64,000 nucleotides of DNA from an uncultured Lachnospiraceae bacterium (GTDB taxonomy: Bacteria > Bacillota > Clostridia > Lachnospirales > Lachnospiraceae). This document shows positions 1 through 22,722 of this stretch, piece by piece (position 1 is the first letter of the stretch; each line of letters opens with the position of its first letter). Location of the stretch: positions 4,118-68,117 of the forward strand of contig CANQHZ010000004.1 of the NCBI GenBank assembly GCA_947623805.1, written 5' to 3'. Under the pieces are notes generated by a model. It was not told the origin of the DNA. It did no database searches and was given only the letters and a program-made list of their open reading frames with translations. The translations under genes were made by a program, and so were the position numbers.

Positions 1-579
1 AGAGTCCGGCCAAACAGGACAATCTACAAAACCTGTTTCAATCACCTTTAAGCCATGCTCTCGCAATTTTTTTTTGATAAAATGACGGTTCATATATTGG
101 ATATCTCCATGCGTCCACTCTATTCCGGTTTTTTTATGGACTAATCTATGTATTGGAAAACCGACATTTCCTGAATTTACGGAAAAAATGGCTACATACT
201 TTTTGCTGATACGTTTCATTTCCTCAATAAAATCATCTGGTTGTTCGCAAGTTGGCATAAACGCAAAATTCCACACAAAGTCAAAAGCATTTTCCAACAA
301 TCCTGTATTATATATATTTATACCATCAATCCATTTGACTTTTTCTCCCGCCCCGATTTTTTCCCATTCTTTCATATATTTTCTGTTTCCGTTTATCAAA
401 GTAATTGTTTGGACAGCTTTAGCAAATCCCATGGAATATATTGATGGCATAGCCTTAGAGCCATGTGCAGGCAATTCAAGCACCGATTTAATTTTGTATT
501 TCTCTGCCAGCTTATTCAACTTTTTCCCGACAGAAAACCTCTCATAATTAACCCCAAAAACTTCTACTTCTTTCCCCAT
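1..579 (-). CDS. Class I SAM-dependent methyltransferase-like protein, 3' end runs off the window
   Basis: Not in the ORF track. Manually translated open frame from ATG at 579 (SD AAGGAG) to the window edge: MGKEVEVFGVNYERFSVG...FDFVWNFAFMPT...GFVDCPVWPDS. The fold assignment is tentative. Confidence 0.6.
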   Translation of the reverse strand, partial: MGKEVEVFGVNYERFSVGKKLNKLAEKYKIKSVLELPAHGSKAMPSIYSMGFAKAVQTITLINGNRKYMKEWEKIGAGEKVKWIDGINIYNTGLLENAFDFVWNFAFMPTCEQPDDFIEEMKRISKKYVAIFSVNSGNVGFPIHRLVHKKTGIEWTHGDIQYMNRHFIKKKLREHGLKVIETGFVDCPVWPDS

Positions 580-593
580 ATTATTTGTACTCC

Positions 594-1571
594 TTATAAA
601 TATCCGTTTTTCCTTGCCCATTTTATTGATAATTTAATGCCTTCTTCAAGACTTATTTTAGGACTGTATCCCAGTATGCTTTCAGCTTTTTCTATATTAC
701 ATGAATGATCCTTAGCAAAAAAATCAATTCTTCCTTTATTCACGAATCCTGCTTTTTTGAATATTTTTTTACTAATACTGTCAACAATATTTGCAATAAA
801 TACAGATAACCCATAACCTATATTGATTTGAATCAGTCTGCTTCCTACCGTTTTGGCAATGCATTCCAGATATTCTTTAGCTGTGCATTCTTCACCGCCT
901 AAATTAAAAATTTCATTATATGCCTTTTCATTTAATATTGACAAGACAAAGCCGTCTACAATGTCGGAAACATATGTAGGCTGAATATAAGCGTTTCCAT
1001 TTGTAGTCAATACAAAATGCTTCTTTTTTATGCTGCGGTATAGTGCTGTACGCCGCACATCTTCTTTCCCATATACATACGCCGGGCGTAGTATAGTATA
1101 TGGAATTTTTCCTTCACAGATATTGATTACGCCCAATTCTGCAAGCATTTTTGTTTCTGAATATTCATTTGTCGGCATATATGGCTCATTTTCTTTGGTG
1201 CTGCGCCCGCCAAGACCAACTACAAATGGCGCACTGCAGAGAATAAACTGCTTTACATTATATTTTACCGAAAGCTTAGCCAGTTTAGCTGTTGCAAGGT
1301 AATTTACATTGTAGTAATAGCTATAAGGAATGCCGTAGTGTCCTAGCTGAGCCGCCATATGTATTACTACGTCTATTCCTTTCATTTTTTCGCCGAGCTT
1401 TTCTATTTCCTGCAAGTCTAATACAATATTTTCGACATTCTTTGTAAACATCCCCTCAGGGATTTTATTTCTGGAAACGCAGATTACATTAAGATTGTCA
1501 TCCAGCAAACGCTCTACAAGATTTTTCCCAATAAACCCAGTAGCTCCTGTAACTAAAATATTCAAAATCAC
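594..1571 (-). CDS. NAD-dependent epimerase/dehydratase (extended SDR)
   Basis: TGATGFIG Rossmann motif, HMAA, YxxxK (YSETK), RPAYVYG. Confidence 0.9.
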   Translation of the reverse strand: MILNILVTGATGFIGKNLVERLLDDNLNVICVSRNKIPEGMFTKNVENIVLDLQEIEKLGEKMKGIDVVIHMAAQLGHYGIPYSYYYNVNYLATAKLAKLSVKYNVKQFILCSAPFVVGLGGRSTKENEPYMPTNEYSETKMLAELGVINICEGKIPYTILRPAYVYGKEDVRRTALYRSIKKKHFVLTTNGNAYIQPTYVSDIVDGFVLSILNEKAYNEIFNLGGEECTAKEYLECIAKTVGSRLIQINIGYGLSVFIANIVDSISKKIFKKAGFVNKGRIDFFAKDHSCNIEKAESILGYSPKISLEEGIKLSIKWARKNGYL

Positions 1572-1677
1572 ACCCCCCGAAAATTTTAGATATTTAAATG
1601 CCTTTTGGCATTACTGTTAATTTTTCCTATAACGCAAAATAAAAAATCCCAATTCAAAGCTTCCATTGTGCCATTCA

Positions 1678-1705
1678 CAATTTCATACTTTAAATCAGGA
1701 TTTTT
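1678..1705. repeat. Left inverted repeat of TA cassette (pairs with 2419-2446)
   Basis: caatttcatactttaaatcaggattttt matches the reverse complement of 2419-2446 at 27/28. Confidence 0.85.
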
Positions 1706-1732
1706 ATGCGTATTCTGCCTAAACAACCGTTT

Positions 1733-2095
1733 CTATTTTCCCAACAGCTTATTCAATTTTCTATCGAAAGTCTTGATTTCATATCCCTTTACCTTATGAT
1801 ACGCATATAATATACAGTCGGGAAAATCCAGATTCTGTTCTGCATATGTTCTGATGCCAAGTCTCAGCACGCTGGGTTCCGGAGTAGTGACCTCAGCCAA
1901 TAATTCAATCAGGCACTGGCTGATTTCCGTCCTGTCAATATGATATACACCCCTTAATACATATACCACTTCCGCAAAAATTTCTATATTTACCTGAACA
2001 TCATTATTTTTAATGGCTGTTTCTGCTTCTGATGCCATCTGTTCATCATCATTCAGCAGATACCGTAAAACGATGTTTGCATCAAGCATTACCAT
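1733..2095 (-). CDS. PIN-domain toxin (VapC-like)
   Basis: LDANIVLRYL N-terminal PIN motif; acidic residues in E...E, DFPDC and TFDRKL. Confidence 0.85.
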   Translation of the reverse strand: MVMLDANIVLRYLLNDDEQMASEAETAIKNNDVQVNIEIFAEVVYVLRGVYHIDRTEISQCLIELLAEVTTPEPSVLRLGIRTYAEQNLDFPDCILYAYHKVKGYEIKTFDRKLNKLLGK

Positions 2096-2321
2096 ATTTT
2101 TCCGCCACCGCCTTCTCCCACGCTGATGCTTCCTGCTCTCTCAGGCTTGTATCCGCATATTTTGCCAGCATTCCTCTTACAGTCTGTGGCTTTTTTTCAT
2201 TGGGGGGCTCATCGACAAACTCATCCAATATGGTGATTATCAGCTTTTGGTTTTTTTGTGCCTGAATCCTCCCTATCGTTTTTACGCTTTCTCCATCATA
2301 ATAACCTTCCAACGCCAGCAT
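2082..2321 (-). CDS. Putative antitoxin of the PIN toxin (AF2212/DUF104-like)
   Basis: Small ORF MLALEGYYDG... overlapping the toxin start by 14 bp; start moved from 2333 to 2321. Confidence 0.7.
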   Translation of the reverse strand: MLALEGYYDGESVKTIGRIQAQKNQKLIITILDEFVDEPPNEKKPQTVRGMLAKYADTSLREQEASAWEKAVAEKYGNA

Positions 2322-2361
2322 ATATTCACCCACCTATACGTTTTTCAATCTGTACCGCTAT

Positions 2362-2390
2362 ATTATATCACTATAAATATTATATGGCAA
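2362..2390 (-). promoter_or_regulatory. Sigma-A promoter of the TA pair
   Basis: TTGCCA-N17-TATAAT with TG extension on the minus strand, inside the inverted repeats. Confidence 0.7.
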
Positions 2391-2418
2391 ACAAAACCTT
2401 TATTTATGCAGTATGGTT

Positions 2419-2446
2419 AAAAATGCTGATTTAAAGTATGAAATTG
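2419..2446. repeat. Right inverted repeat of TA cassette
   Basis: aaaaatgctgatttaaagtatgaaattg, reverse complement of 1678-1705 with 1 mismatch. Confidence 0.85.
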
Positions 2447-2479
2447 TCAAGGTTCAATTGTAAAACATACAGACAATCA

Positions 2480-3631
2480 TTATTTCTTCAAGCTAAACTG
2501 CACAGCCTTCACCCCTGCCTTAACCAGCGTCGGAAAATGAAGCAGTTCGTTGCTGTATGCCATGTTCGCAAGCGGGCAGGCGCAGTTTTCATTCCTTATG
2601 TACCTGCGTACTTCCTCTGCTCTTTCTGAATGCCACAGCTTTTGAAAATCATAACCATAGTCCCTCAGGTTGCCCATTTCCTGTTCATATCCAAGCACGC
2701 AGCAGGGCCATACGCCGCCGTCATAATTTATGTGCACATTTGATACCCCCGCATAGCAGGGTATCACCTGGCGTTTTTCCTCAAGTATTCTTCCCGCCAA
2801 ATCATAATAAACTACTCGCATTGCCTCTGTAGTTTTTGCAAGCGACTTCTTTTTGCCGATGTTCTCCTCGATTTTTCTTGCAAAATCCTTCATAAGCCGC
2901 TGATAAACCTCTGCGGGCGGCGTAATAGGATCGCTCTTGTTAAAAAACTCTGCGCGGCATTCTGCCACCTCATTACGGTAGCTCTCAACTCCGAGTGAAT
3001 GTACAAAGTCTTCAATCTCATCAAGCTCATTGATATTGAAATTTGAAACAACAGTGCCAAGCTCAAGGTGAAAGTTATCGTATTTTTCTTCCAGCTTTTT
3101 CAGCCCTTCAACAGTCTTTATCAGACACTCAAAATTGCCCCTGACACCCCTAATTTCATCATGCTTTTCGCCAACGCCGTCTATGGAAGGCTTTACGGTA
3201 AAAGGCACCGTCGGGTCATAGGCTTGAATAATCTTTAAAATCTTTTCTGTGTCCTCAATGATACGTTCAGTCAAAATTGCATTTGTCGGCGTATGTATTA
3301 CCCTTGGCTTAAGATAGTTGCATGCCAACTCTACAATCTGCGGAAGGTCTTTTCTTAAAAAAGGCTCTCCGCCGCTGATATTAAAAAAATAAACCGGATT
3401 AACAGACTGGAATATTTTTTCTATTTCTTCCAATGTCATATCTTTTTGGCTTCTTGATGGATCCTGACAAAACATTGCGCCTATCTGGCAGGTTTTGCAT
3501 TTTGACTGACAGGCTGCCGTAACGGAATACGTCACAGTCATTGGATCAAACTTTTTCCTTCCAAACCATCGGTACATTTTGTAGTCAAACAGATACGGGG
3601 ACAGCTTGGTAAATAAATCGCTTTTTTTCAT
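2480..3631 (-). CDS. Radical SAM protein with SPASM/twitch domain
   Basis: CxxxCxxC (CQSKCKTC), SGGEP, C-terminal CYAG...GGVWPCC...CACP. Confidence 0.9.
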   Translation of the reverse strand: MKKSDLFTKLSPYLFDYKMYRWFGRKKFDPMTVTYSVTAACQSKCKTCQIGAMFCQDPSRSQKDMTLEEIEKIFQSVNPVYFFNISGGEPFLRKDLPQIVELACNYLKPRVIHTPTNAILTERIIEDTEKILKIIQAYDPTVPFTVKPSIDGVGEKHDEIRGVRGNFECLIKTVEGLKKLEEKYDNFHLELGTVVSNFNINELDEIEDFVHSLGVESYRNEVAECRAEFFNKSDPITPPAEVYQRLMKDFARKIEENIGKKKSLAKTTEAMRVVYYDLAGRILEEKRQVIPCYAGVSNVHINYDGGVWPCCVLGYEQEMGNLRDYGYDFQKLWHSERAEEVRRYIRNENCACPLANMAYSNELLHFPTLVKAGVKAVQFSLKK

Positions 3632-3672
3632 ATAATTTCACTTATGGCTATGCCATGTTCCCTTCTGCGTTT

Positions 3673-4710
3673 TTATCTTGTCAGGAATACTTTCCCGTCC
3701 TTTACCCGTCCGCGCCAGTAGTCCAGCAGGTCGTGCATTGTCGTTTCAAAGCTTATCTCAGGCTCCCAACCTGTGTGTTCCTTGAATTTCCTGCAGTCCG
3801 GCACCTGAAGGTCTGCATCGATGGGGCGGAGTCTCTCCGGATCAGTTACAATCTCTATCTCATCCTTTTTTGTGGAATAGGAGATTAAAGTCCTAAGGGT
3901 ATCGCCTACCTCACATGTATAAGAACCGCCTATATTGTAGTATTCTCCTGCAACAGGATTGACTGTTACCAGCATATAATACGCCCGGACGGCATCTCTT
4001 ACATCCGCGTATGTACGCAGGGATTTCAGGTTCCCTACCATTATCTTCGGCTCTATCAGCCCTGCCTCAATCATTGCAATCTGCTTGGCAAATGTTGATT
4101 CATGAAATACATCCCCCCTGCGCGGTCCAGTATGTGTGAACATTCTGGTGGTAATGACTGTCATCCCGTATGCCTCCGCATAATATCTTCCTAATAAATC
4201 CGTCCCTACCTTTGAGATTGCATATGGGGATGCCGGATGAAACGGACATTCCTCATGAATCCCGTCTTTTGGCTTTTTTTCCGCAGGTATCTTGCCAAAA
4301 ACTTCAGAGGAAGCGCATACATGCACTGTGGTCTGGTAGGAAGCATCTGCTTTCATTTCAAGCCGGATAGCCTCCAAAAGCCGACATGTTCCCAAAATAT
4401 TTGTATTTAAAGTATCTATAGGCGCAGTAAAACTAGTGAGCGGATAACTCTGGGCTGCCAGATGAAAGACATAATCAGGCTTCGCCTTGTGGATAACGTT
4501 AATCAAAGACATTTCATCATTCAGATCCGCATACTCAAAAAAGACCCTGTCCTTTTTATTTACACGTTCCAGTAAATGCTCAACGTTATCCAGCGGACTT
4601 CTCCACCTGCATACGCCATATACCTCCCAGTCAGTGTTCTCCAAAAGGAAGTCAGCCATGTGCGAGCCTACCATTCCTGTGATTCCTGTTATTAATGCTC
4701 TTTTGCTCAT
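3673..4710 (-). CDS. GDP-sugar 4,6-dehydratase (Gmd family; DmhA-like)
   Basis: TGITGMVG, HLAAQS, SSEVFG, SPYAISK, HTGPRR, RLRPID. Confidence 0.88.
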   Translation of the reverse strand: MSKRALITGITGMVGSHMADFLLENTDWEVYGVCRWRSPLDNVEHLLERVNKKDRVFFEYADLNDEMSLINVIHKAKPDYVFHLAAQSYPLTSFTAPIDTLNTNILGTCRLLEAIRLEMKADASYQTTVHVCASSEVFGKIPAEKKPKDGIHEECPFHPASPYAISKVGTDLLGRYYAEAYGMTVITTRMFTHTGPRRGDVFHESTFAKQIAMIEAGLIEPKIMVGNLKSLRTYADVRDAVRAYYMLVTVNPVAGEYYNIGGSYTCEVGDTLRTLISYSTKKDEIEIVTDPERLRPIDADLQVPDCRKFKEHTGWEPEISFETTMHDLLDYWRGRVKDGKVFLTR

Positions 4711-5570
4711 AATTGAATATTCTCCAGTTCCTTCATAATTTTTTCCGTAAAACTGCCGCTGTCTATTATTTTATATTTGTCAAGATAAAGACTTTTCATC
4801 TGCGTAATTGCTGGTCTGTTCTGATAAAATTCGCCGTTCGGCTTGGAAATGGAATATAACAGCCGTCCCCCCGTCATTCGGTTCAGCTCGTCCGCAATTC
4901 TAACCCTGCTCACCAGTTCCGTTCCAGCCACATTTAATACAAAATCTTCATATTCCTTCCAATGGTGCAGAAACCAAAGGACTACCGCTGTCACATCACT
5001 TACAGTGACACAATTGCGGTAAAAAGGGTGAAATATATCCGCAACTTTTCCATTCTTAATGCAATCAAGACAATAAGAAACAAACTTATCCTTTGCGGAC
5101 ACTACATAAGAAAGGCGGATCGCCTTAAAATGTGTATCAGTCTTAAACTCATCCTCAACGCTTTTTTTCATGCGCCCATAGGGCGTTTCTGCATGTGTAT
5201 CCGATTTCTCTGTGTAGACTTGTCCTGGGATATCCCCATATACAGCATCGCTTGAGAAAAACAGGACATTGCAGCCTCTTTTGATTGCTTCCCCGATGAA
5301 GTACTTTGTACCGATGACGTTAATAGTCTGGCAGAGTTCAAATTCATTGGCGCATCTGTCGGGGCTTGAGATTGCCGCCGTAAAAATTATGTAATCAGTC
5401 TTATCCAAGGTGGCATAGTCAAACTGTTCCGAATGCTCTAAGTTTAAAAAAACATCTGCCTCCGAATATTGGTCAATTTTAAGAATCTGCTCTACATCCT
5501 TGTCTTTTGCAAGCGCCCTAATAAGAAATCCTGAAATATAGCCCCCGCTTCCCACAACAGCAACTTTCAT
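4707..5570 (-). CDS. NDP-4-keto-6-deoxy-sugar reductase (SDR; DmhB-like)
   Basis: VGSGGYI, AAISSPD, SSDAVYG, YGRMK; 4-bp overlap with the dehydratase. Confidence 0.75.
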   Translation of the reverse strand: MKVAVVGSGGYISGFLIRALAKDKDVEQILKIDQYSEADVFLNLEHSEQFDYATLDKTDYIIFTAAISSPDRCANEFELCQTINVIGTKYFIGEAIKRGCNVLFFSSDAVYGDIPGQVYTEKSDTHAETPYGRMKKSVEDEFKTDTHFKAIRLSYVVSAKDKFVSYCLDCIKNGKVADIFHPFYRNCVTVSDVTAVVLWFLHHWKEYEDFVLNVAGTELVSRVRIADELNRMTGGRLLYSISKPNGEFYQNRPAITQMKSLYLDKYKIIDSGSFTEKIMKELENIQL

Positions 5571-5573
5571 ATC

Positions 5574-6713
5574 TTACCACCCTAATAATTCTTCTATTTT
5601 TTCCCTCATGCGTTCCCAGTCAAACTGATACGCCTCTTTGCGTACATGTTCACACATTTCCGCCTCGCGGTTTTGGGAATAAAAGTCAATCACCGCGTCA
5701 GCAATCTGCTCCGGTCTTCCCGCTTCTACGATGTAACCGGTCTTTCTGTCCTGCACAACATCAGGCAGCCCTCCAACATTTGTTACAATGACCGGCTTTT
5801 CAAATCCATATGCAATCTGCACTATACCGCTTTGTGTCGCAGAAATATAGGGCAGCACTACAATATCTGAAGCTGCAAAATACTTTTCAACTTCATTATC
5901 CGAAACATATTTGTCTATCAGTTCTACGCAGTCATCAATCCGGAGTTCCCTGATAAGGTGTAGATATTCTTCCTTGTCATCCGCGAAAGCCCCTACTACC
6001 ATTAAATTGATATCCTGCAAATATTCGCGTATCTTCGGCAGCGCCATAAGCAGGTATTTTAGTCCTTTATATTCACGCACAAAACCAAAGAAAAGCATCT
6101 GTTTTGCATCCTGTTTTTTTTGCAGTTCCACGCGCGCCTGTTCCTTTGTAATGTTCCTTTGCCTGAAAACATTAAAAATAGGAATGGGATTTCGGGCATA
6201 TACGGCATCAGGCATTACCTGCATAAGTTCTTCCCCATCGCTTTGCGAATGGACAATAAAATAATTTCCCATCTTAAGTACACGCTTTGTCAGAAAACGG
6301 TCTAACGGAAATCTCTCATGCGGAAAAACATTATGGCAAATGAACAGTTTTGGCATCTGCCTGCCCAATACTTTCCCTAAAATTTCATAGCACGGCGCAA
6401 AATATGGATGCCACCATTGCAGAATTACGAGATCTGGCTTATGCTTTTTTATCCTGAGCGCCACGTTAATAATGTTAAATGGATTAGCCGTATTGAGTAA
6501 AAATTGGGCTTCATCTACTTTAAACAGGTCGCTTTTAAAATCCTTCTGCTCCTTTTTAAACAGAAGCTTGGGGTACTGCATCTTATAAGATATTAGTTCT
6601 ACATCATGTCTTTTACTGAGTGTCCTGTATAATAAGCTGGTATTATGCGCAATCCCGCCTTTGTATGGATATACCGGTCCGATCAGCGCAATTTTTTTCT
6701 TTTCTGTCTCCAC
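5574..6713 (-). CDS. Glycosyltransferase family 4
   Basis: FFGFVREYKGL and PYISATQSG...GKPVI-like EX7E region. Likely start GTG 6713 with SD GGGAG; the ORF-track start at 6770 lies inside an inverted repeat. Confidence 0.9.
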   Translation of the reverse strand: METEKKKIALIGPVYPYKGGIAHNTSLLYRTLSKRHDVELISYKMQYPKLLFKKEQKDFKSDLFKVDEAQFLLNTANPFNIINVALRIKKHKPDLVILQWWHPYFAPCYEILGKVLGRQMPKLFICHNVFPHERFPLDRFLTKRVLKMGNYFIVHSQSDGEELMQVMPDAVYARNPIPIFNVFRQRNITKEQARVELQKKQDAKQMLFFGFVREYKGLKYLLMALPKIREYLQDINLMVVGAFADDKEEYLHLIRELRIDDCVELIDKYVSDNEVEKYFAASDIVVLPYISATQSGIVQIAYGFEKPVIVTNVGGLPDVVQDRKTGYIVEAGRPEQIADAVIDFYSQNREAEMCEHVRKEAYQFDWERMREKIEELLGW

Positions 6714-6749
6714 GCCAAAAACTCCCAATGAAAAGTATTCTATGTCATC

Positions 6750-6775
6750 TGACAATTGCATACTTTGCATTGGGA
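6750..6775. repeat. Left inverted repeat of AAA-nuclease cassette (pairs with 8648-8673)
   Basis: tgacaattgcatactttgcattggga matches the reverse complement of 8648-8673 at 24/26; it is also one arm of an imperfect hairpin at 6721-6777. Confidence 0.8.
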
Positions 6776-6848
6776 GTTTTCCCTTTATATTTTATTTTGT
6801 TCAATTTTTATTATTTTGTATTTTTAAATATTGTTTTCGCTATCCCCT

Positions 6849-8558
6849 TTACCCTATACGACATTCCTTCCCGCGGAATGCAAACCCATACTTGTGTATC
6901 CTTTTAGGCGTTATCCCCTTAGCCTCAAGCGAGGCGACGTAGCATTTCTCCTCTATCTGGCTTAGTGCATTTTTCACCGTGTCGTCAAGTGTCTTTTCAT
7001 CATCAGGATCATAGACTTTAAATTCTATGATTATCGCATCATCCTTCTCATTCAGCGGTTCAAGCATCACGTCATACCGTCCGAATCCGCTCTCGCGGTT
7101 CGAGGTGATGGAATACCTGTCCGCAAGGTCTACCATAAGCCCCAGCACGAAGCCATGGTAGAAGCGTTCGGGCTCTGAATATTCGGAAGGCTTGTTCCCC
7201 GCGTCAAAGCTGCTGAAGGTGGCAAGGGCAACCTTATTCATATAGCGGTTCATGGCCTTTTTATCGTTTATCAGCAGGGCCTTGATAAAGTCGTTATAGT
7301 CTGTTTCCGAGCTTTCTGAAAACCATCCCTTTACCATATCTGAGAACATAATTTCCACTTCCATATTAGTAAGGCGCATGGTATATAAGTTCTTTTTGTG
7401 TTCCCCAATTTGGACAAGTCTGTCAAGCCTGAGATACCCTGTCGCCAGCAGCAGGCTCCATACAGCGCTTGCATTTCCAGTAAGTTGATTAAATACAACC
7501 TGCTCATCAATTTCAGCATTAAAGCTTTTGCCGCTTAAAAGTTCTTCCATAGTCTGCTTAATTATAGGGCTGCCTTTTTTGACCAAAACATTTACAAGCT
7601 CATTGCCGCTTGTATTTGACCAATACGCGTCATAACGACCGCCGCTGTTGATAAATGATAAGATAGACCAGGGATTGTAGATATCTGTATGAGCGCCAAA
7701 GGTAAAGCCGTCATACCACTTTTTTACATTTGCTTTCTCCATCCCCAGCCCATTTCTGTCAAGCGCCGAAAAAACATCCTCCTCTGACAGTCCAAAACAT
7801 GATGCATATTTATCGGATGTTGTCGTAATTACCGCCAGATTGTTCAGCCCCGAAAAGATGCTCTCCTTTGAAATCCTTGTGATGCCTGTAATTATTCCGC
7901 GGAATATATGGTCGTTTGTCTTAAAGGTGGAATTGAACAGCCCCCTGAAAAACTCCACTGCCTCATCCCAGTAGCCTGACAGCCACGCTTCCTGCATCGG
8001 CGTGTCATATTCGTCAAGCAGAATAATGACATCCCTGCCATAATAACGGTGCAGAAAATCAGAGATGGCATTAACGGCTCCTGCCGCGACTTCATCGCGC
8101 ATGCCGGGGCATATCTGCTCATAATAGCGTTTTTCATTCGGACTCAGCAGGTCGCCTTCCAGCAGGTATCTGTGCTGCTCATATAATCTGGCAATTATTT
8201 CCGTTATCTTATACTCCATCTTCTCATAATTCACTGCTTTAATATTAGCGAAGCTCAGAAATATCACAGGGAACGTCCCCTGAAGATGCCTGTACTTATA
8301 TGTCCCGTCAGCATTTTTCGCTTCCCATACCGCTTTACCCTCAAACAGGCTTCCCTTCCCCGCATATTTATTGGAAAAGAAGCACTCAACCGTGCTGAGG
8401 TTGAGCGTCTTCCCAAACCTACGCGGCCTCGTTATCAGCGTCACCTTATCCTTGTATTCCCACCATTCGCTTATGAACCCCGTCTTGTCTATATAAAATA
8501 TGTTTTCCGTTATGACTTCCTCATAATTCTGGTATCCTAAAGCCGGTATCTGCTGCAT
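6849..8558 (-). CDS. AAA-ATPase-like domain plus PD-(D/E)XK nuclease (PDDEXK_9 type)
   Basis: ITRPRRFGKT, LLDEYDTP, C-terminal SNRESGFGRYDV...IIEFK. Start moved to 8558 (SD GGAGGGAAGGA) because the ATG at 8612 overlaps the -10 box. Confidence 0.9.
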   Translation of the reverse strand: MQQIPALGYQNYEEVITENIFYIDKTGFISEWWEYKDKVTLITRPRRFGKTLNLSTVECFFSNKYAGKGSLFEGKAVWEAKNADGTYKYRHLQGTFPVIFLSFANIKAVNYEKMEYKITEIIARLYEQHRYLLEGDLLSPNEKRYYEQICPGMRDEVAAGAVNAISDFLHRYYGRDVIILLDEYDTPMQEAWLSGYWDEAVEFFRGLFNSTFKTNDHIFRGIITGITRISKESIFSGLNNLAVITTTSDKYASCFGLSEEDVFSALDRNGLGMEKANVKKWYDGFTFGAHTDIYNPWSILSFINSGGRYDAYWSNTSGNELVNVLVKKGSPIIKQTMEELLSGKSFNAEIDEQVVFNQLTGNASAVWSLLLATGYLRLDRLVQIGEHKKNLYTMRLTNMEVEIMFSDMVKGWFSESSETDYNDFIKALLINDKKAMNRYMNKVALATFSSFDAGNKPSEYSEPERFYHGFVLGLMVDLADRYSITSNRESGFGRYDVMLEPLNEKDDAIIIEFKVYDPDDEKTLDDTVKNALSQIEEKCYVASLEAKGITPKRIHKYGFAFRGKECRIG

Positions 8559-8610
8559 ATATCCTTCCCTCCCCGCCATTAATGAAACCGTTTTTTTACC
8601 CCACAATCCC

Positions 8611-8639
8611 ATTATAGCCGCTCATCCCGCTTTTCACAA
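8611..8639 (-). promoter_or_regulatory. Sigma-A promoter of the AAA-nuclease gene
   Basis: TTGTGA-N17-TATAAT on the minus strand, just inside the right inverted repeat. Confidence 0.65.
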
Positions 8640-8647
8640 CATTTTTT

Positions 8648-8673
8648 TCCTAATGCAAAGTATGCAGTTGTCA
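8648..8673. repeat. Right inverted repeat of AAA-nuclease cassette
   Basis: tcctaatgcaaagtatgcagttgtca; shares the core aaagtatg-a-ttgtcaaggt with 2433-2453 (19/21). Confidence 0.8.
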
Positions 8674-8716
8674 AGGTGCCGTACTTTAATTAAACAATCT
8701 ATATAAAGCCTTCCGG

Positions 8717-9190
8717 CTATATAGCAGAGCTGTTCCGCCCATCCTCGTGTTGCTGCATTTCACCCACAACCCTGTAGGTCCTCACAGCCTCTTTCTCAAC
8801 CTTCTGCTGCAGGTACAGCGCATCATATTCCGTCCTGCGCACATGGTACTGCGTATCCTCTAGCAGCCTCCTGTTTGCCGCAAGCGTGTCAGCCATGAGC
8901 CCTATAATAAAAGTCAAAAATCCGATAATCAGCAGCATGCACGCCAGTATCAGCGACTGTATATGCCCCGCCGAAGTCCCCTTAAACACAAACCAGAAAT
9001 ACCTAAGTATGTACCCAACCCCCAGAGCCATGGGCGGCATCATCAGGAAAGTAAAACACTTAAGCGGCTTGTACATCATATACGCCCGCAGTATCGTCAC
9101 CACCGACTTCTTGACATACCCCCATATGCTCTTAAACAGCCTAGACGGCCGCAGCTCAGGGTTTGTCCTCACGGGGACACTTGTAATCCC
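8717..9190 (-). pseudogene. 3' fragment of a GT2 (polyprenol-phosphate glycosyltransferase-like) gene; 5' catalytic region missing
   Basis: ITSVPVRTNPELRPSRLF followed by two TM helices is a typical GT2 C-terminus. Upstream sequence is AT-rich non-coding DNA carrying the divergent integrase promoter. Confidence 0.7.
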
Positions 9191-9332
9191 GAGCTTTTCA
9201 CATATACAAAATAAAAAATTCCCTGCAAATAAAAAGGCCATTTCCACAAAAAACAATAAACAAAATGCTATAATAAATATGTAAAAAATAACATTTGTCA
9301 GCTAAAACAAAGCAAAAAGGAGAGAAAAGCAC

Positions 9333-10556
9333 ATGGGAAAATCATTAAAAGGAAAAGAACTAGGCAGGGGCATAACCCAGCGGAAGGATAAGCTTTATCA
9401 GGCGCGCTTTACGGACAGCTCTGGAAAGACAAAGACTATCTACGCCAAAACATACAAAGAAATACTTCAAACAATAGAAGACCAAACTTCGCCCGCCAAT
9501 CCGTCACCTGAGCAGCCTTTAGAAGCGCAGCCGCCCGAGAGCCAGACTGATAAATCACTGTCAGCATTAATTCAAGCCGTACAAGCCAAGGCTTTTTCAG
9601 GGCAGGACATCACATTGAATGACTGGTATGAAATTTGGATAAATACCTGCAAAAAGAACTGCAGGGACACAACGCTGAGAACATATTCCCTTCAATATAA
9701 CCGTCTGCGCGATACCATAGGCGCTTTGAGCCTGCCAAGCCTAAATCCTATATTGCTGCAGACAGTATTCAACAATTTAAAAAGCGACGCGTCAAGAAAT
9801 GCCTGCAAGAAGCTCCTTGTGGACATATTAAATTGCGCAATGGAGGCTGATCTGATATCCAAAAATCCTGCGCTTAACATAAAAACTAAAATTGACAATA
9901 TAGATAAACCTGAAAAAAGAGTTTTAACGGAAGAAGAAATACAGCTCTTATACAAAACATCAAGAAACGACAGGCTGTATCCGTTTTTTGCAGTTGCGTT
10001 AAACACGGGTATGCGTATAGGCGAAATAATCGGCTTGACTTGGGACTGCGTGGATTTTGAAAACAGCATAATTAAAGTTGAAAAAACCTTATGCTACCTT
10101 CCAAACAACGGAAACGGCATATATGAGTTTCACCCGCCTAAAACCAAGGCAGGGAGGAGAGTGATTCCGATGACAAAACAGGCAAAAGAAGCATTGCAGG
10201 AGCAGAGAAAATGGCAGAGCGGCAATATATCAGGCATAACGCCGCTTAAAGGCTTTGAAAAGCTTGTATTCACCAGCAAAACCAATCGCCCGCTGCACGC
10301 GGCAAACATACAGGACTCCATTAAATTTTTAATTAAAAAAATCAATAAGCAGAATCCTGAAATCAATTTTAAACCATTCACCCCCCACTGTCTACGTCAC
10401 ACCTTCGCCACAAACTGCATAGCCAAAGGCATGCGTCCCAAAACCTTGCAAAAGTTGCTCGGACACAATTCACTTCAGATGACAATGGATTTGTACTGCC
10501 ATGTACTTGAAGATACGCTGAAAGAGGAGATGGCAATGATAGCGGAAATGGACTAA
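9333..10556 (+). CDS. Tyrosine recombinase/integrase with N-terminal arm-binding domain
   Basis: MGKSLKGKELGRGITQRKD N-terminus; catalytic set TGMRIGE, KTK, HCLRH, GH, Y (DLYCH). Confidence 0.92.
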   Translation: MGKSLKGKELGRGITQRKDKLYQARFTDSSGKTKTIYAKTYKEILQTIEDQTSPANPSPEQPLEAQPPESQTDKSLSALIQAVQAKAFSGQDITLNDWYEIWINTCKKNCRDTTLRTYSLQYNRLRDTIGALSLPSLNPILLQTVFNNLKSDASRNACKKLLVDILNCAMEADLISKNPALNIKTKIDNIDKPEKRVLTEEEIQLLYKTSRNDRLYPFFAVALNTGMRIGEIIGLTWDCVDFENSIIKVEKTLCYLPNNGNGIYEFHPPKTKAGRRVIPMTKQAKEALQEQRKWQSGNISGITPLKGFEKLVFTSKTNRPLHAANIQDSIKFLIKKINKQNPEINFKPFTPHCLRHTFATNCIAKGMRPKTLQKLLGHNSLQMTMDLYCHVLEDTLKEEMAMIAEMD

Positions 10557-21696: not shown

Positions 21697-22020
21697 TTAA
21701 TCTTTATTTATTTTATTTATGACATCTTCTGCTGAAACTGCGTAATTTTCGGCAATCAAGCTGACTATTTTTTCATCGGGCAAGCCTAGATGCCGAAGCA
21801 TTTCGATGCTGCTTTTTATGTCCTGTTCGCGCGCCTCGCTAATCCCGTTCTTATGCCCACGCTCAAAACCTTCGCTAATTCCACTTTTATGCCCACGCTC
21901 AAAACCCTCGCTAATTCCACTTTTATGCCCACGTTCAAAGCCCTCGTTCACGCCGTCTTCAAAGCCCTCTCTGTATACAGTCTTTTTATACAGCTTTTCA
22001 TCAAATTCCGTAAGCAGCAT
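21697..22020 (-). CDS. Putative internally initiated C-terminal protein (RpnS-like antitoxin)
   Basis: In-frame ATG at 22020 preceded by GAGGTG-N6 SD. Confidence 0.55.
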   Translation of the reverse strand: MLLTEFDEKLYKKTVYREGFEDGVNEGFERGHKSGISEGFERGHKSGISEGFERGHKNGISEAREQDIKSSIEMLRHLGLPDEKIVSLIAENYAVSAEDVINKINKD

Positions 22021-22722
22021 ACTTTTCACCTCACTCTTGCATTTGATTAAAATATCTGCCAAAATATCATTTTCTATGCAATAGTCTATTGCCTTGCTTA
22101 TAGCATACTCTACTGTATGCTGGCTGTCGATGTATTCGTTTACCTTTGCTATAAAATATGAATAATCGTGAAGACGGCGGCAGCTGTTCAGCAGGGCATT
22201 ATTGTGTCCATAGTTAATGTTCAGCATTGTTGCACGACACTCAAGGATGGGTTCGCCTGACGCCTCCGGAACAAATGCGTCTGACAGTTTTAAAACCATT
22301 TCATCCGGATACTCGTTCCTGCCGTTGTAAAAAATAATAAACTGAGGTCTCGGCAGACTGACGAGACGACTTGCGTATATATCAAGGTCATGCTGTTTGA
22401 TATAGCCCTCGTACAGCCTGGCGAAATACATCAGTCCGCGCACGGGCATATTTGGGTTAAAGGTAGACTGATGCTCATAAAGGTTCAGTGTCGATGAGAT
22501 TATAAAGGACATATCATTTTTCATCGACATATAAATCACGTCTTCAAGCGTCGTGATTTCAAGCTCATCAGGATTTGCATAGTCAGTATGGTTTATCGCG
22601 TTGTACAAGTCAAGAAGGTCTTTTTTGTCCGCAAAAACCCTTTGGAACAGCCTATCCTTATGCGCCCTGTTTACCGCAAAGCGTCTGAATATTTTGGCAA
22701 TATTAAGTTTTTCTCTTTTCAT
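21697..22722 (-). CDS. Rpn/YhgA-like PD-(D/E)XK nuclease (putative transposase family)
   Basis: HKDRLF, NDMSF...LYEHQST.NPNMPVR, PQFIIFYNG, Gly/Glu-rich C-terminal repeats. Confidence 0.85.
   Translation of the reverse strand: MKREKLNIAKIFRRFAVNRAHKDRLFQRVFADKKDLLDLYNAINHTDYANPDELEITTLEDVIYMSMKNDMSFIISSTLNLYEHQSTFNPNMPVRGLMYFARLYEGYIKQHDLDIYASRLVSLPRPQFIIFYNGRNEYPDEMVLKLSDAFVPEASGEPILECRATMLNINYGHNNALLNSCRRLHDYSYFIAKVNEYIDSQHTVEYAISKAIDYCIENDILADILIKCKSEVKSMLLTEFDEKLYKKTVYREGFEDGVNEGFERGHKSGISEGFERGHKSGISEGFERGHKNGISEAREQDIKSSIEMLRHLGLPDEKIVSLIAENYAVSAEDVINKINKD
21836..21943. repeat. Three 36-bp tandem repeats (EGFERGHKSGIS) in the Rpn C-terminus
   Basis: tcgctaat recurs at 21836, 21872 and 21908; a degenerate fourth copy starts at 21944. 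Confidence 0.95.

Follow-up and report, generated by a model that had tools for sequence, protein, structure and literature searches.

Ribosomal RNA (rRNA) operons are among the closest described parallels to the gene cassettes reported here. The leader–trailer helix is classical in these operons, more than 17 bp being needed for the Escherichia coli helix (PMC10250234), and the Nus complex, once bound to boxA, retains the 5′ element of the growing transcript at the RNA exit channel (PMC8632103). We analyzed a 64,000-nt stretch of DNA (the window) from an uncultured Lachnospiraceae bacterium (GenBank assembly GCA_947623805.1, contig CANQHZ010000004.1, positions 4,118 to 68,117), which carries two cassettes of protein-coding genes among genes for glycan synthesis. 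Each cassette is entered through a site, P, that contains the boxA sequence found in rRNA leaders of the same genome, and ends in a site, T, predicted to form a terminator hairpin whose 5′ arm is complementary to P. The boxA is the same as in the rRNA leader, and in both cases the boxA strand belongs to a long-range helix of ~25–30 bp that encloses the product (PMC10250234, PMC8632103). In contrast to rRNA operons, the cassettes enclose a protein-coding unit of 0.1–3 kb with an internal promoter, and the 3′ strand of the helix doubles as the 5′ arm of the terminator, which would set up a choice between two predicted structures.

Two exclusive pairings of one RNA segment likewise decide terminator formation in attenuators and riboswitch platforms. 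In those systems, however, the antiterminator strand is a neighbor at a distance of only tens of nucleotides, and a ligand, a ribosome, a tRNA or a protein makes the choice, whereas the competing strand of the cassettes lies up to 3 kb upstream and the proposed decider is whether the transcript starts upstream or downstream of P. Non-ribosomal boxA sites (lambda nut, the suhB leader and the leaders of CRISPR arrays) and the processive antiterminator RNAs HK022 put and EAR are early cis-acting RNA signals that make the polymerase ignore later stops, as proposed here for P, and some of them serve horizontally acquired DNA. All of these elements follow a promoter and serve their own operon, whereas P, at the entry of a cassette, would serve the polymerase of the host operon and would add specific pairing with one terminator.

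Phage morons are also autonomous cargo with their own promoter and a factor-independent terminator, placed between genes of a larger transcription unit. They are, however, without a conserved entry signal complementary to the terminator, whereas the present cassettes are chromosomal, lie in metabolic and glycan operons and keep one frame across cargo families. Integron cassettes with their attC sites share the small single-gene unit, the imperfect 3′ hairpin, the frequent toxin–antitoxin cargo and the occasional arrays. In contrast to integrons, the cassette sites are inverted rather than direct, the hairpin is without R″/R′ GTTRRRY cores, every cassette has its own promoter, and the asymmetry of the hairpin fits an RNA of the coding strand. 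An integron or attC assignment was rejected on the orientation of the sites, the absent cores, the internal promoters and the Tn916 type of the nearby integrase; no IntI, attI or Pc was seen, no search of the genome having been aimed at IntI. BoxA, the leader–trailer helix, competition between terminator and antiterminator, and moron-like cassettes are known parts. Their combination into a kilobase-range antiterminator at the entry of an operon-embedded cassette, with termination set by the start of transcription, is to our knowledge new; the literature on boxA in mobile or cassette contexts and on the cargo families with terminators yielded background papers, in which this arrangement was not described.

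Predicted terminator hairpins and their boxA-led partner sites

The initial annotation of the window had placed inverted repeats at the borders of both cassettes, and these were recovered as a 33-nt pair around cassette 1 (1674–1706 and 2418–2450, 94% complementary) and a 26-nt pair around cassette 2 (6750–6775 and 8648–8673, 92% complementary). The shared core T[CG]ACAA[TC]T[TG]CATACTTT matched four times in the window, in the alternating orientation described there, with 0.16 matches expected, and a count of 4 was reached in 0 of 100 shuffles. A local hairpin had also been assigned to each of the four sites. This held for the two downstream sites (1636–1706 and 6713–6782), which fold strongly, whereas the upstream hairpins (~2436–2468 and 8657–8687) are weak, and no conserved local hairpin was found when the P sites were examined for one. 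P is the reverse complement of T from the hairpin base to the apex, and the inverted repeat is P read against the 5′ half of T; the 3′ arm of T is a third, more diverged copy of the same repeat.

T sites share a long interrupted hairpin composed of an outer stem of ~17 bp, an internal loop with TATGmAATT, a small apical stem and a U-run. T1, the predicted terminator hairpin of cassette 1 (1636–1706, minus strand), has RNA arms complementary to 1688–1705 (5′) and 1642–1659 (3′), with a small apical stem and then the U-run, and its 5′ arm and loop (1674–1706) are the inverted-repeat partner of P1. The sense strand of T1 folds at −24.8 to −29.1 kcal/mol with four G·U pairs, the antisense strand at −12.7 kcal/mol. 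T2, the predicted terminator hairpin of cassette 2 (6713–6782, minus strand), has arms at 6718–6743 and 6755–6780 followed by a U-run. Folded alone, both window sites adopt the terminator structure, at −29.1 kcal/mol for T1 and −30.9 kcal/mol for T2. Within the 3′ arm of T2 lies GGGAG (6726→6722), the ribosome-binding site for the gene that follows, which probably starts at the GTG at 6713. The same GGGAG-spacer-GTG layout recurs in the T2 sequence of the cassette in genome G067.

The difference between strands extends to the other cassettes. The mean fold of T across 31 distinct cassettes was −26.1 kcal/mol in sense and −17.9 kcal/mol in antisense, the sense fold being the more stable in 29 of the 31 (Wilcoxon p = 1.6e-6), and their hairpins contained 91 G·U pairs in sense against 4 in antisense. 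An independent family-wide set gave the same direction in 69/73 cassettes (p = 2e-13), with a U-rich tail (at least 4 of 9) after the hairpin in 52 of the 73. Six stem positions showed at least two Watson–Crick pair types, and one of them was A-U in 26, G-C in 26 and G·U in 16 cassettes. On this comparative structural evidence, T is best read as an intrinsic terminator on the cargo strand that would stop transcripts from the cassette promoter, since a DNA cruciform or a recombination site would be strand-symmetric. A stable RNA hairpin of the transcribed strand with a U-run, by which intrinsic terminators are recognized, was found at the T sites. A simple terminator scan did not list T, whose stem is long and A/U-rich and whose loop is large and interrupted.

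P1 (2418–2455, minus strand) and P2 (8648–8679, minus strand) each begin with ACCTTGACAA (2453→2444 and 8677→8668); the strand that continues directly from it is the complement of the 5′ arm and loop of T1 and T2, respectively. Within the window, exact copies of ACCTTGACAA occur in P1 and P2 only. Other P sites carry this sequence unchanged, and so do the rRNA leaders in G000 (contigs C64 and C202), G017 and G033, where G000 is the window's own genome and G017 and G033 are genomes of the same genus. The leaders of all three read ACCTTGACAAATAAACAG; those of G017 and G033 contain ...GAACCTTGACAAATAAACAGTAATGCAACCC... 3′ of their promoters, and the ends of C64 and C202 in G000, broken at rRNA operons, read gcACCTTGACAAATAAACAGTAATGCATACC. 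On the coding strand of the cargo, P starts with (g)aACCTTGACAA and has the consensus (g)aACCTTGAC-AAyTkCATACTTTAyATyAGGA. In P, the rRNA-type boxA of the organism (ACCUUGACAA) runs straight into ~25 nt that are the complement of T's 5′ arm and loop. The initial annotation had offered as a second possibility that the CCTTGACAA copies on the minus strand act as boxA-like signals for antitermination, and the evidence favors this part of it: ACCTTGACAA is the boxA of the rRNA leaders of the genome and the genus. In the rRNA operons themselves, the leader strand that contains boxA forms a helix with the 16S trailer (GGGAGTTGCATTACTGTTTATCTGTCAGG), at energies of −40.4 and −35.2 kcal/mol.

Other readings of P were also considered. 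The TTGACA within it was tried as the −35 box of a sigma-A promoter, and only AGGAAA-like hexamers stand at 16–18 nt; as no −10 is present at that distance, TTGACA is not taken as a promoter element. Readings as sigma-54, sigma-H or sporulation-sigma promoters were rejected on spacing, judged by eye. No Rfam family matched P or T.

Pairing between P and the 5′ arm of T (the P:T5′ duplex, 22–30 bp) is predicted to be stronger than the terminator. The duplex averages −37.5 kcal/mol against −26.7 kcal/mol for the T hairpin and is the stronger structure in 30 of 32 cassettes, as well as in 66/73 of the family-wide set. In the window the values are −37.2 kcal/mol for P1:T1 and −35.5 kcal/mol for P2:T2, and when each T was co-folded with its P the minimum-energy structure was the P:T5′ duplex, with the terminator gone (−42.0 kcal/mol in cassette 1 and −41.2 kcal/mol in cassette 2). 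G·U pairs make up 14.4% of the hairpin and 8.9% of the duplex (p = 9e-8). The two strands also covary within cassettes: P has 1.9 mismatches per 22 positions with its own T and 3.7 with shuffled partners, and 0 of 20,000 shuffles gave a value as low. The duplex is more stable as sense RNA in 48 cassettes and as antisense in 23 (p = 1e-6). Flanking complementary strands of more than 17 bp that covary, the hallmark of a leader–trailer helix, are thus present in the P:T pairs.

Each window cassette had been predicted to carry its own sigma-A promoter inside the repeats, and these are the two top sigma-A-like matches within 1500–9300: TTGCCA-17-TATAAT with TG (11/12; 2362–2390, minus strand, 2390→2362) downstream of P1, and TTGTGA-17-TATAAT (10/12; 8611–8639, minus strand, 8639→8611) downstream of P2. 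Since P lies upstream of the promoter of its own cassette, a transcript can include P only if it comes from the host gene upstream. Among 27 cassettes of the genus set, 20 have a long co-directional open reading frame (ORF) that ends 9–98 nt ahead of boxA, one clearly shows the opposite, and 22 have a co-directional ORF that begins directly after T. Family-wide, the downstream gene is co-directional in 63/67 cassettes and the upstream gene in 45/65, the upstream exceptions being mostly short, doubtful ORFs. The main cargo ORF runs from the boxA end to the hairpin end in 29/29 cassettes of the genus set and 71/72 of the family-wide set.

Spread and exchange of the cassette frame

The family comprises ~100 cassettes and is Lachnospiraceae-wide. 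A search for paired copies of the core motif around other cargo, which the initial annotation had proposed, found the motif in 45/61 same-genus genomes, always as convergent pairs and around varied cargo, and with a strict pattern in 18 of 250 other genera of the family. The exact P pattern was present in 113 stretches among 185,579 species; the records listed were almost all from Lachnospiraceae or unnamed gut bacteria and included Acetatifactor muris DSM 23669 and Butyrivibrio hungatei DSM 14810, so that cultured carriers exist. The cargo families are AAA-ATPase_like with PDDEXK_9, AAA_35 with PDDEXK_3, Transposase_31 (Rpn/YhgA-like), PDDEXK_2 and Uma2, along with a PIN toxin–antitoxin pair and an aspartyl-protease pair, and a few cassettes are remnants of 240–300 bp. 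The earlier view of modular, self-promoted cassettes with a shared family of sites is borne out by this recurrence of one frame around unrelated cargo across genus and family. In G008, G017 and G010, homologs of the toxin–antitoxin genes lack P and end in a GC-rich terminator of the ordinary kind, and a free-standing Rpn-family gene in the window (21697–22722, minus strand) has no P or T sequence at either end. The P/T frame is independent of its cargo and goes with the co-directional, operon-embedded copies rather than with the Rpn gene family.

The window cassettes occupy the same place and orientation in two other species. At the ortholog of window positions 1634–2450 in G028, a sister species and one of these two (locus L028, G028:C6:9400-10000), the PIN gene is cleanly deleted while the partner gene, P and T are kept, which leaves an orphan putative antitoxin within an intact frame. 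Other places vary more. A hotspot directly after a glycerophosphodiester phosphodiesterase (GDPD) gene differs between species: it holds P-Uma2-T in G000, G028, G063 and G067, P-Uma2-Uma2-T on a second contig of G000, and P-AAA_35/PDDEXK_3-T in G003, G008 and G071. In G062 and G086 the hotspot holds no cassette, and its flanking genes lie directly side by side. A comparison with relatives for empty sites and target duplications had been suggested, and it yielded the empty sites; these show no target duplication, footprint or residual site. In G083 (locus L054, G083:C5) a lone T-like hairpin (ACCTGATGTATGAAATTGT...TTTGTATCAGATTTTTT) stands at the same place, accompanied by neither P nor cargo; a possible origin is an ancestral terminator that seeds cassettes, another a remnant of cassette loss, and it could not be fitted into an insertion scheme. 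P and T covary with the cargo at this hotspot, which argues that whole cassettes, not cargo alone, are exchanged. Cassettes are 85–96% conserved and their flanks 65–75%. The cassettes are gained, lost and replaced; a search for the means of this mobility found no recombinase, target duplication or terminal repeat on the T side.

The GDPD flank upstream of the Uma2 cassettes is 96% identical on two contigs of G000 (C8:13400-14400 and C51:19800-20170), and the sequence downstream differs, with one or two Uma2 genes and other genes following. Either this segment is duplicated in the genome, or the metagenome-assembled genome combines heterogeneous strains.

A proposed start-dependent terminator and its rivals

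We favor, at about even odds, a reading in which P is a boxA-led long-range antiterminator, or leader–trailer helix, for read-through transcripts of the host operon, whereas T stops the cassette's own transcripts. Strand-specific structures, boxA identity, relative energies, covariation and gene context are what the comparison shows; from these we infer that P is transcribed, that Nus factors load on it and that it pairs with T co-transcriptionally over 0.1–3 kb, resulting in read-through. The unit, ordered as P, own promoter, cargo and T, would be inserted co-directionally in a host operon. NusB and S10 would load on boxA and tether P to the polymerase's RNA exit channel, in the manner of rRNA operons, until the 5′ arm of T emerges 0.1–3 kb later and pairs with P. 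The P:T5′ duplex, predicted to be mostly Watson–Crick and ~10 kcal/mol stronger than pairing of that arm with the G·U-rich 3′ arm of T, would then keep the terminator from forming, and the polymerase would run on into the downstream host gene. In cassette 2, opening of T would also free the downstream ribosome-binding site in its 3′ arm. The design would copy the 16S leader–trailer helix of the same genus, which is formed by the boxA strand and the 16S trailer. Termination would in the end depend on where the transcript starts, and selfish or defense cargo could sit within an operon without causing polar damage. Of the host factors, NusB and Rho are encoded in G000.

More tentatively, and with somewhat less confidence than an even call, we suggest that selfish nuclease and toxin–antitoxin cassettes borrowed the boxA and leader–trailer design of rRNA operons and so made a terminator that reads the origin of the transcript, the P/T frame perhaps serving also as a handle for exchange between operons. 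If this is true, accessory genes can colonize essential or surface-glycan operons without silencing the genes behind them, and the range of boxA/Nus biology, so far rRNA, phage and CRISPR leaders, grows to include an antiterminator that the polymerase carries with it and that pairs over kilobases. It would also be a natural start-dependent terminator, a part wanted by synthetic biologists. The AAA-ATPase/PDDEXK, Rpn-like and Uma2 genes, which are abundant and unexplained in gut Firmicutes, gain a defined unit with recognizable borders, which aids annotation and studies of their spread.

Several observations weigh against the antitermination reading. In E. coli, the antitermination complex of rRNA operons acts chiefly against Rho and has a weak effect at intrinsic terminators, which leaves the pairing to do the work here. 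ACCTTGACAA includes the −35 consensus TTGACA, which makes part of the boxA match cheap. P is more invariant than pairing needs, with TTAGGA in P standing opposite TTGGGA in T, an A·C mismatch, in many cassettes; this excess hints at an additional sequence-specific reader of P, possibly at the level of DNA. The mismatches between P and the 5′ arm of T show a modest sense bias (259 G·U against 197 A·C), which by itself leaves an RNA or a DNA role of the long-range pair unsettled. Approximately 3–5 cassettes have a long gene on the opposite strand upstream, and the RNase III domain PF14622 had no match in the 95.7%-complete draft of G000. Finally, the p values given above are inflated to an unknown degree, as many cassettes are related by descent.

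Four other explanations were weighed. A processing role, in which the P:T5′ helix is a leader–trailer stem cut by a double-strand RNase so that the cargo mRNA is released or destroyed and split from the host message, would suit a layout that matches the 16S helix of the genus down to the boxA strand, and a duplex of 22–30 bp exceeds the >17 bp of the E. coli helix (PMC10250234). Cutting would, however, give the downstream host message an unprotected 5′ end, the competing third strand of T (its 3′ arm and U-run) would be left unexplained, and PF14622 was not detected in the G000 draft, which is incomplete; we regard processing as unlikely. Slightly less so, although still improbable in our judgment, is that P and the 5′ arm of T are the DNA ends of mobile non-autonomous cassettes moved by a trans-acting nuclease or recombinase, perhaps the Rpn or PD-(D/E)XK "putative transposase" cargo, with the RNA features secondary. 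Many copies per genome in unrelated contexts, the empty and differently filled GDPD sites, the higher conservation of cassettes than of flanks, a shared 20-mer more invariant than pairing requires, and cargo drawn mostly from families annotated as putative transposases or nucleases would all follow from such mobility. The right repeat is, however, non-terminal, with the 3′ arm and U-run of T traveling and covarying with each cassette, the empty sites are without target duplication or residual site, and the window cassettes are positionally stable across three species. Moreover, DNA ends leave the boxA identity, the strict co-orientation with the host and the G·U bias of the sense strand unexplained. 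A transposon with terminal inverted repeats or a miniature inverted-repeat transposable element was rejected on the subterminal position of the right repeat and the lack of duplication or footprint at empty sites, and hairpin ends of the IS200/IS605 type were rejected as their defining features are not present.

P might instead serve as the operator through which one DNA-binding regulator, shared between cassettes, controls their promoters, and its likeness to T and boxA would then stem from common descent and the −35-like TTGACA. P is nearly invariant and stands 30–60 nt upstream of each cassette promoter, and LexA-box-like palindromes (AAACATATGTTT, GAACnnnnGTTC-like) follow it in several Rpn-type cassettes; an operator would nevertheless explain neither the covariation of P with the 5′ arm of T within cassettes, nor the sense-strand bias of the duplex, nor an rRNA boxA match that reaches beyond TTGACA, and we hold it to be quite improbable. 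The least probable explanation, with very little chance of being right, is the one put forward initially, that the cassettes are invertible, phase-variable segments flipping between their repeats, possibly served by the tyrosine integrase at 9333. Inverted repeats of 26–33 nt do flank each cassette, and the recombinase gene lies ~650 nt from P2. Orientation speaks against the claim: relative to the asymmetric outer parts of P and T, 0 of ~100 cassettes examined were flipped, in keeping with the uniform cargo direction in 29/29 and 71/72 cassettes, and position and orientation are kept in two other species. Most other cassettes are without an adjacent recombinase, the integrase, whose DNA-binding domain is of the Tn916 type, is directed away from the cassette, and the hairpin is that of a strand-specific RNA.

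Genes within and around the window cassettes

The minus strand carries every gene across window positions 594–9256, and the cassettes contain the genes that had been assigned to them. Cassette 1 encodes a PIN-domain toxin (1733–2095, minus strand; PF01850, E = 3e-9) and a small partner of 83 aa (2082–2333, minus strand) that overlaps the PIN gene. The partner had no match in a Pfam search; it is a putative antitoxin by its position and overlap, and it is kept in G028, G067, G008, G017 and G010. Cassette 2 encodes a protein with AAA-ATPase_like and PDDEXK_9 domains (6849–8612, minus strand; PF09820, 1e-40; PF08011, 2e-18), whose true start is probably the ATG near 8558, 3′ of the promoter.

The neighbors of the cassettes are genes of glycan synthesis, namely epimerase, radical-SAM/SPASM, GDP-mannose-dehydratase-like, RmlD-like and GT1 glycosyltransferase genes. 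The radical-SAM/SPASM gene (2480–3631, minus strand) ends ~25 nt before the boxA of P1 and, with no terminator between the two, is a likely source of read-through transcripts carrying P1. Downstream of T1 lies an NAD-dependent epimerase gene (594–1571, minus strand). Expression of the glycosyltransferase gene directly after T2 (5574–6713, minus strand) would need read-through of T2. The tyrosine integrase, with Tn916-type N-terminal DNA-binding and SAM-like domains, is encoded at 9333–10556 on the plus strand and points away from cassette 2; it is probably part of a separate integrative element on its right and not of the cassettes.

Elsewhere in the family, several Rpn-type cassettes carry the palindromes AAACATATGTTT or GAACnnnnGTTC-like overlapping the promoter just 3′ of P, at G000 C3:65400-65600 (minus strand), C4:230-300 and C54:5150-5230 and at loci L036, L040 and L045. 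The resemblance of these palindromes to Firmicute LexA (SOS) boxes suggests that such cassettes may be inducible by DNA damage. Both window cassettes are without LexA-like palindromes.

An array on contig C54 of G000 (1-5300) contains P, a broken Rpn-like gene, a "half T" at 3010 without the 3′ arm, then another Rpn-like gene that is nearly identical to the first, a full T at 1969 and lastly an AAA-ATPase gene without its own P, and looks like a tandem duplication within one frame. Beside this P site, an acyltransferase-like membrane protein (C54:5365-6489, minus strand) begins with ~10 tandem DRQT repeats encoded by a 12-nt DNA repeat, a tract that could be prone to slippage.

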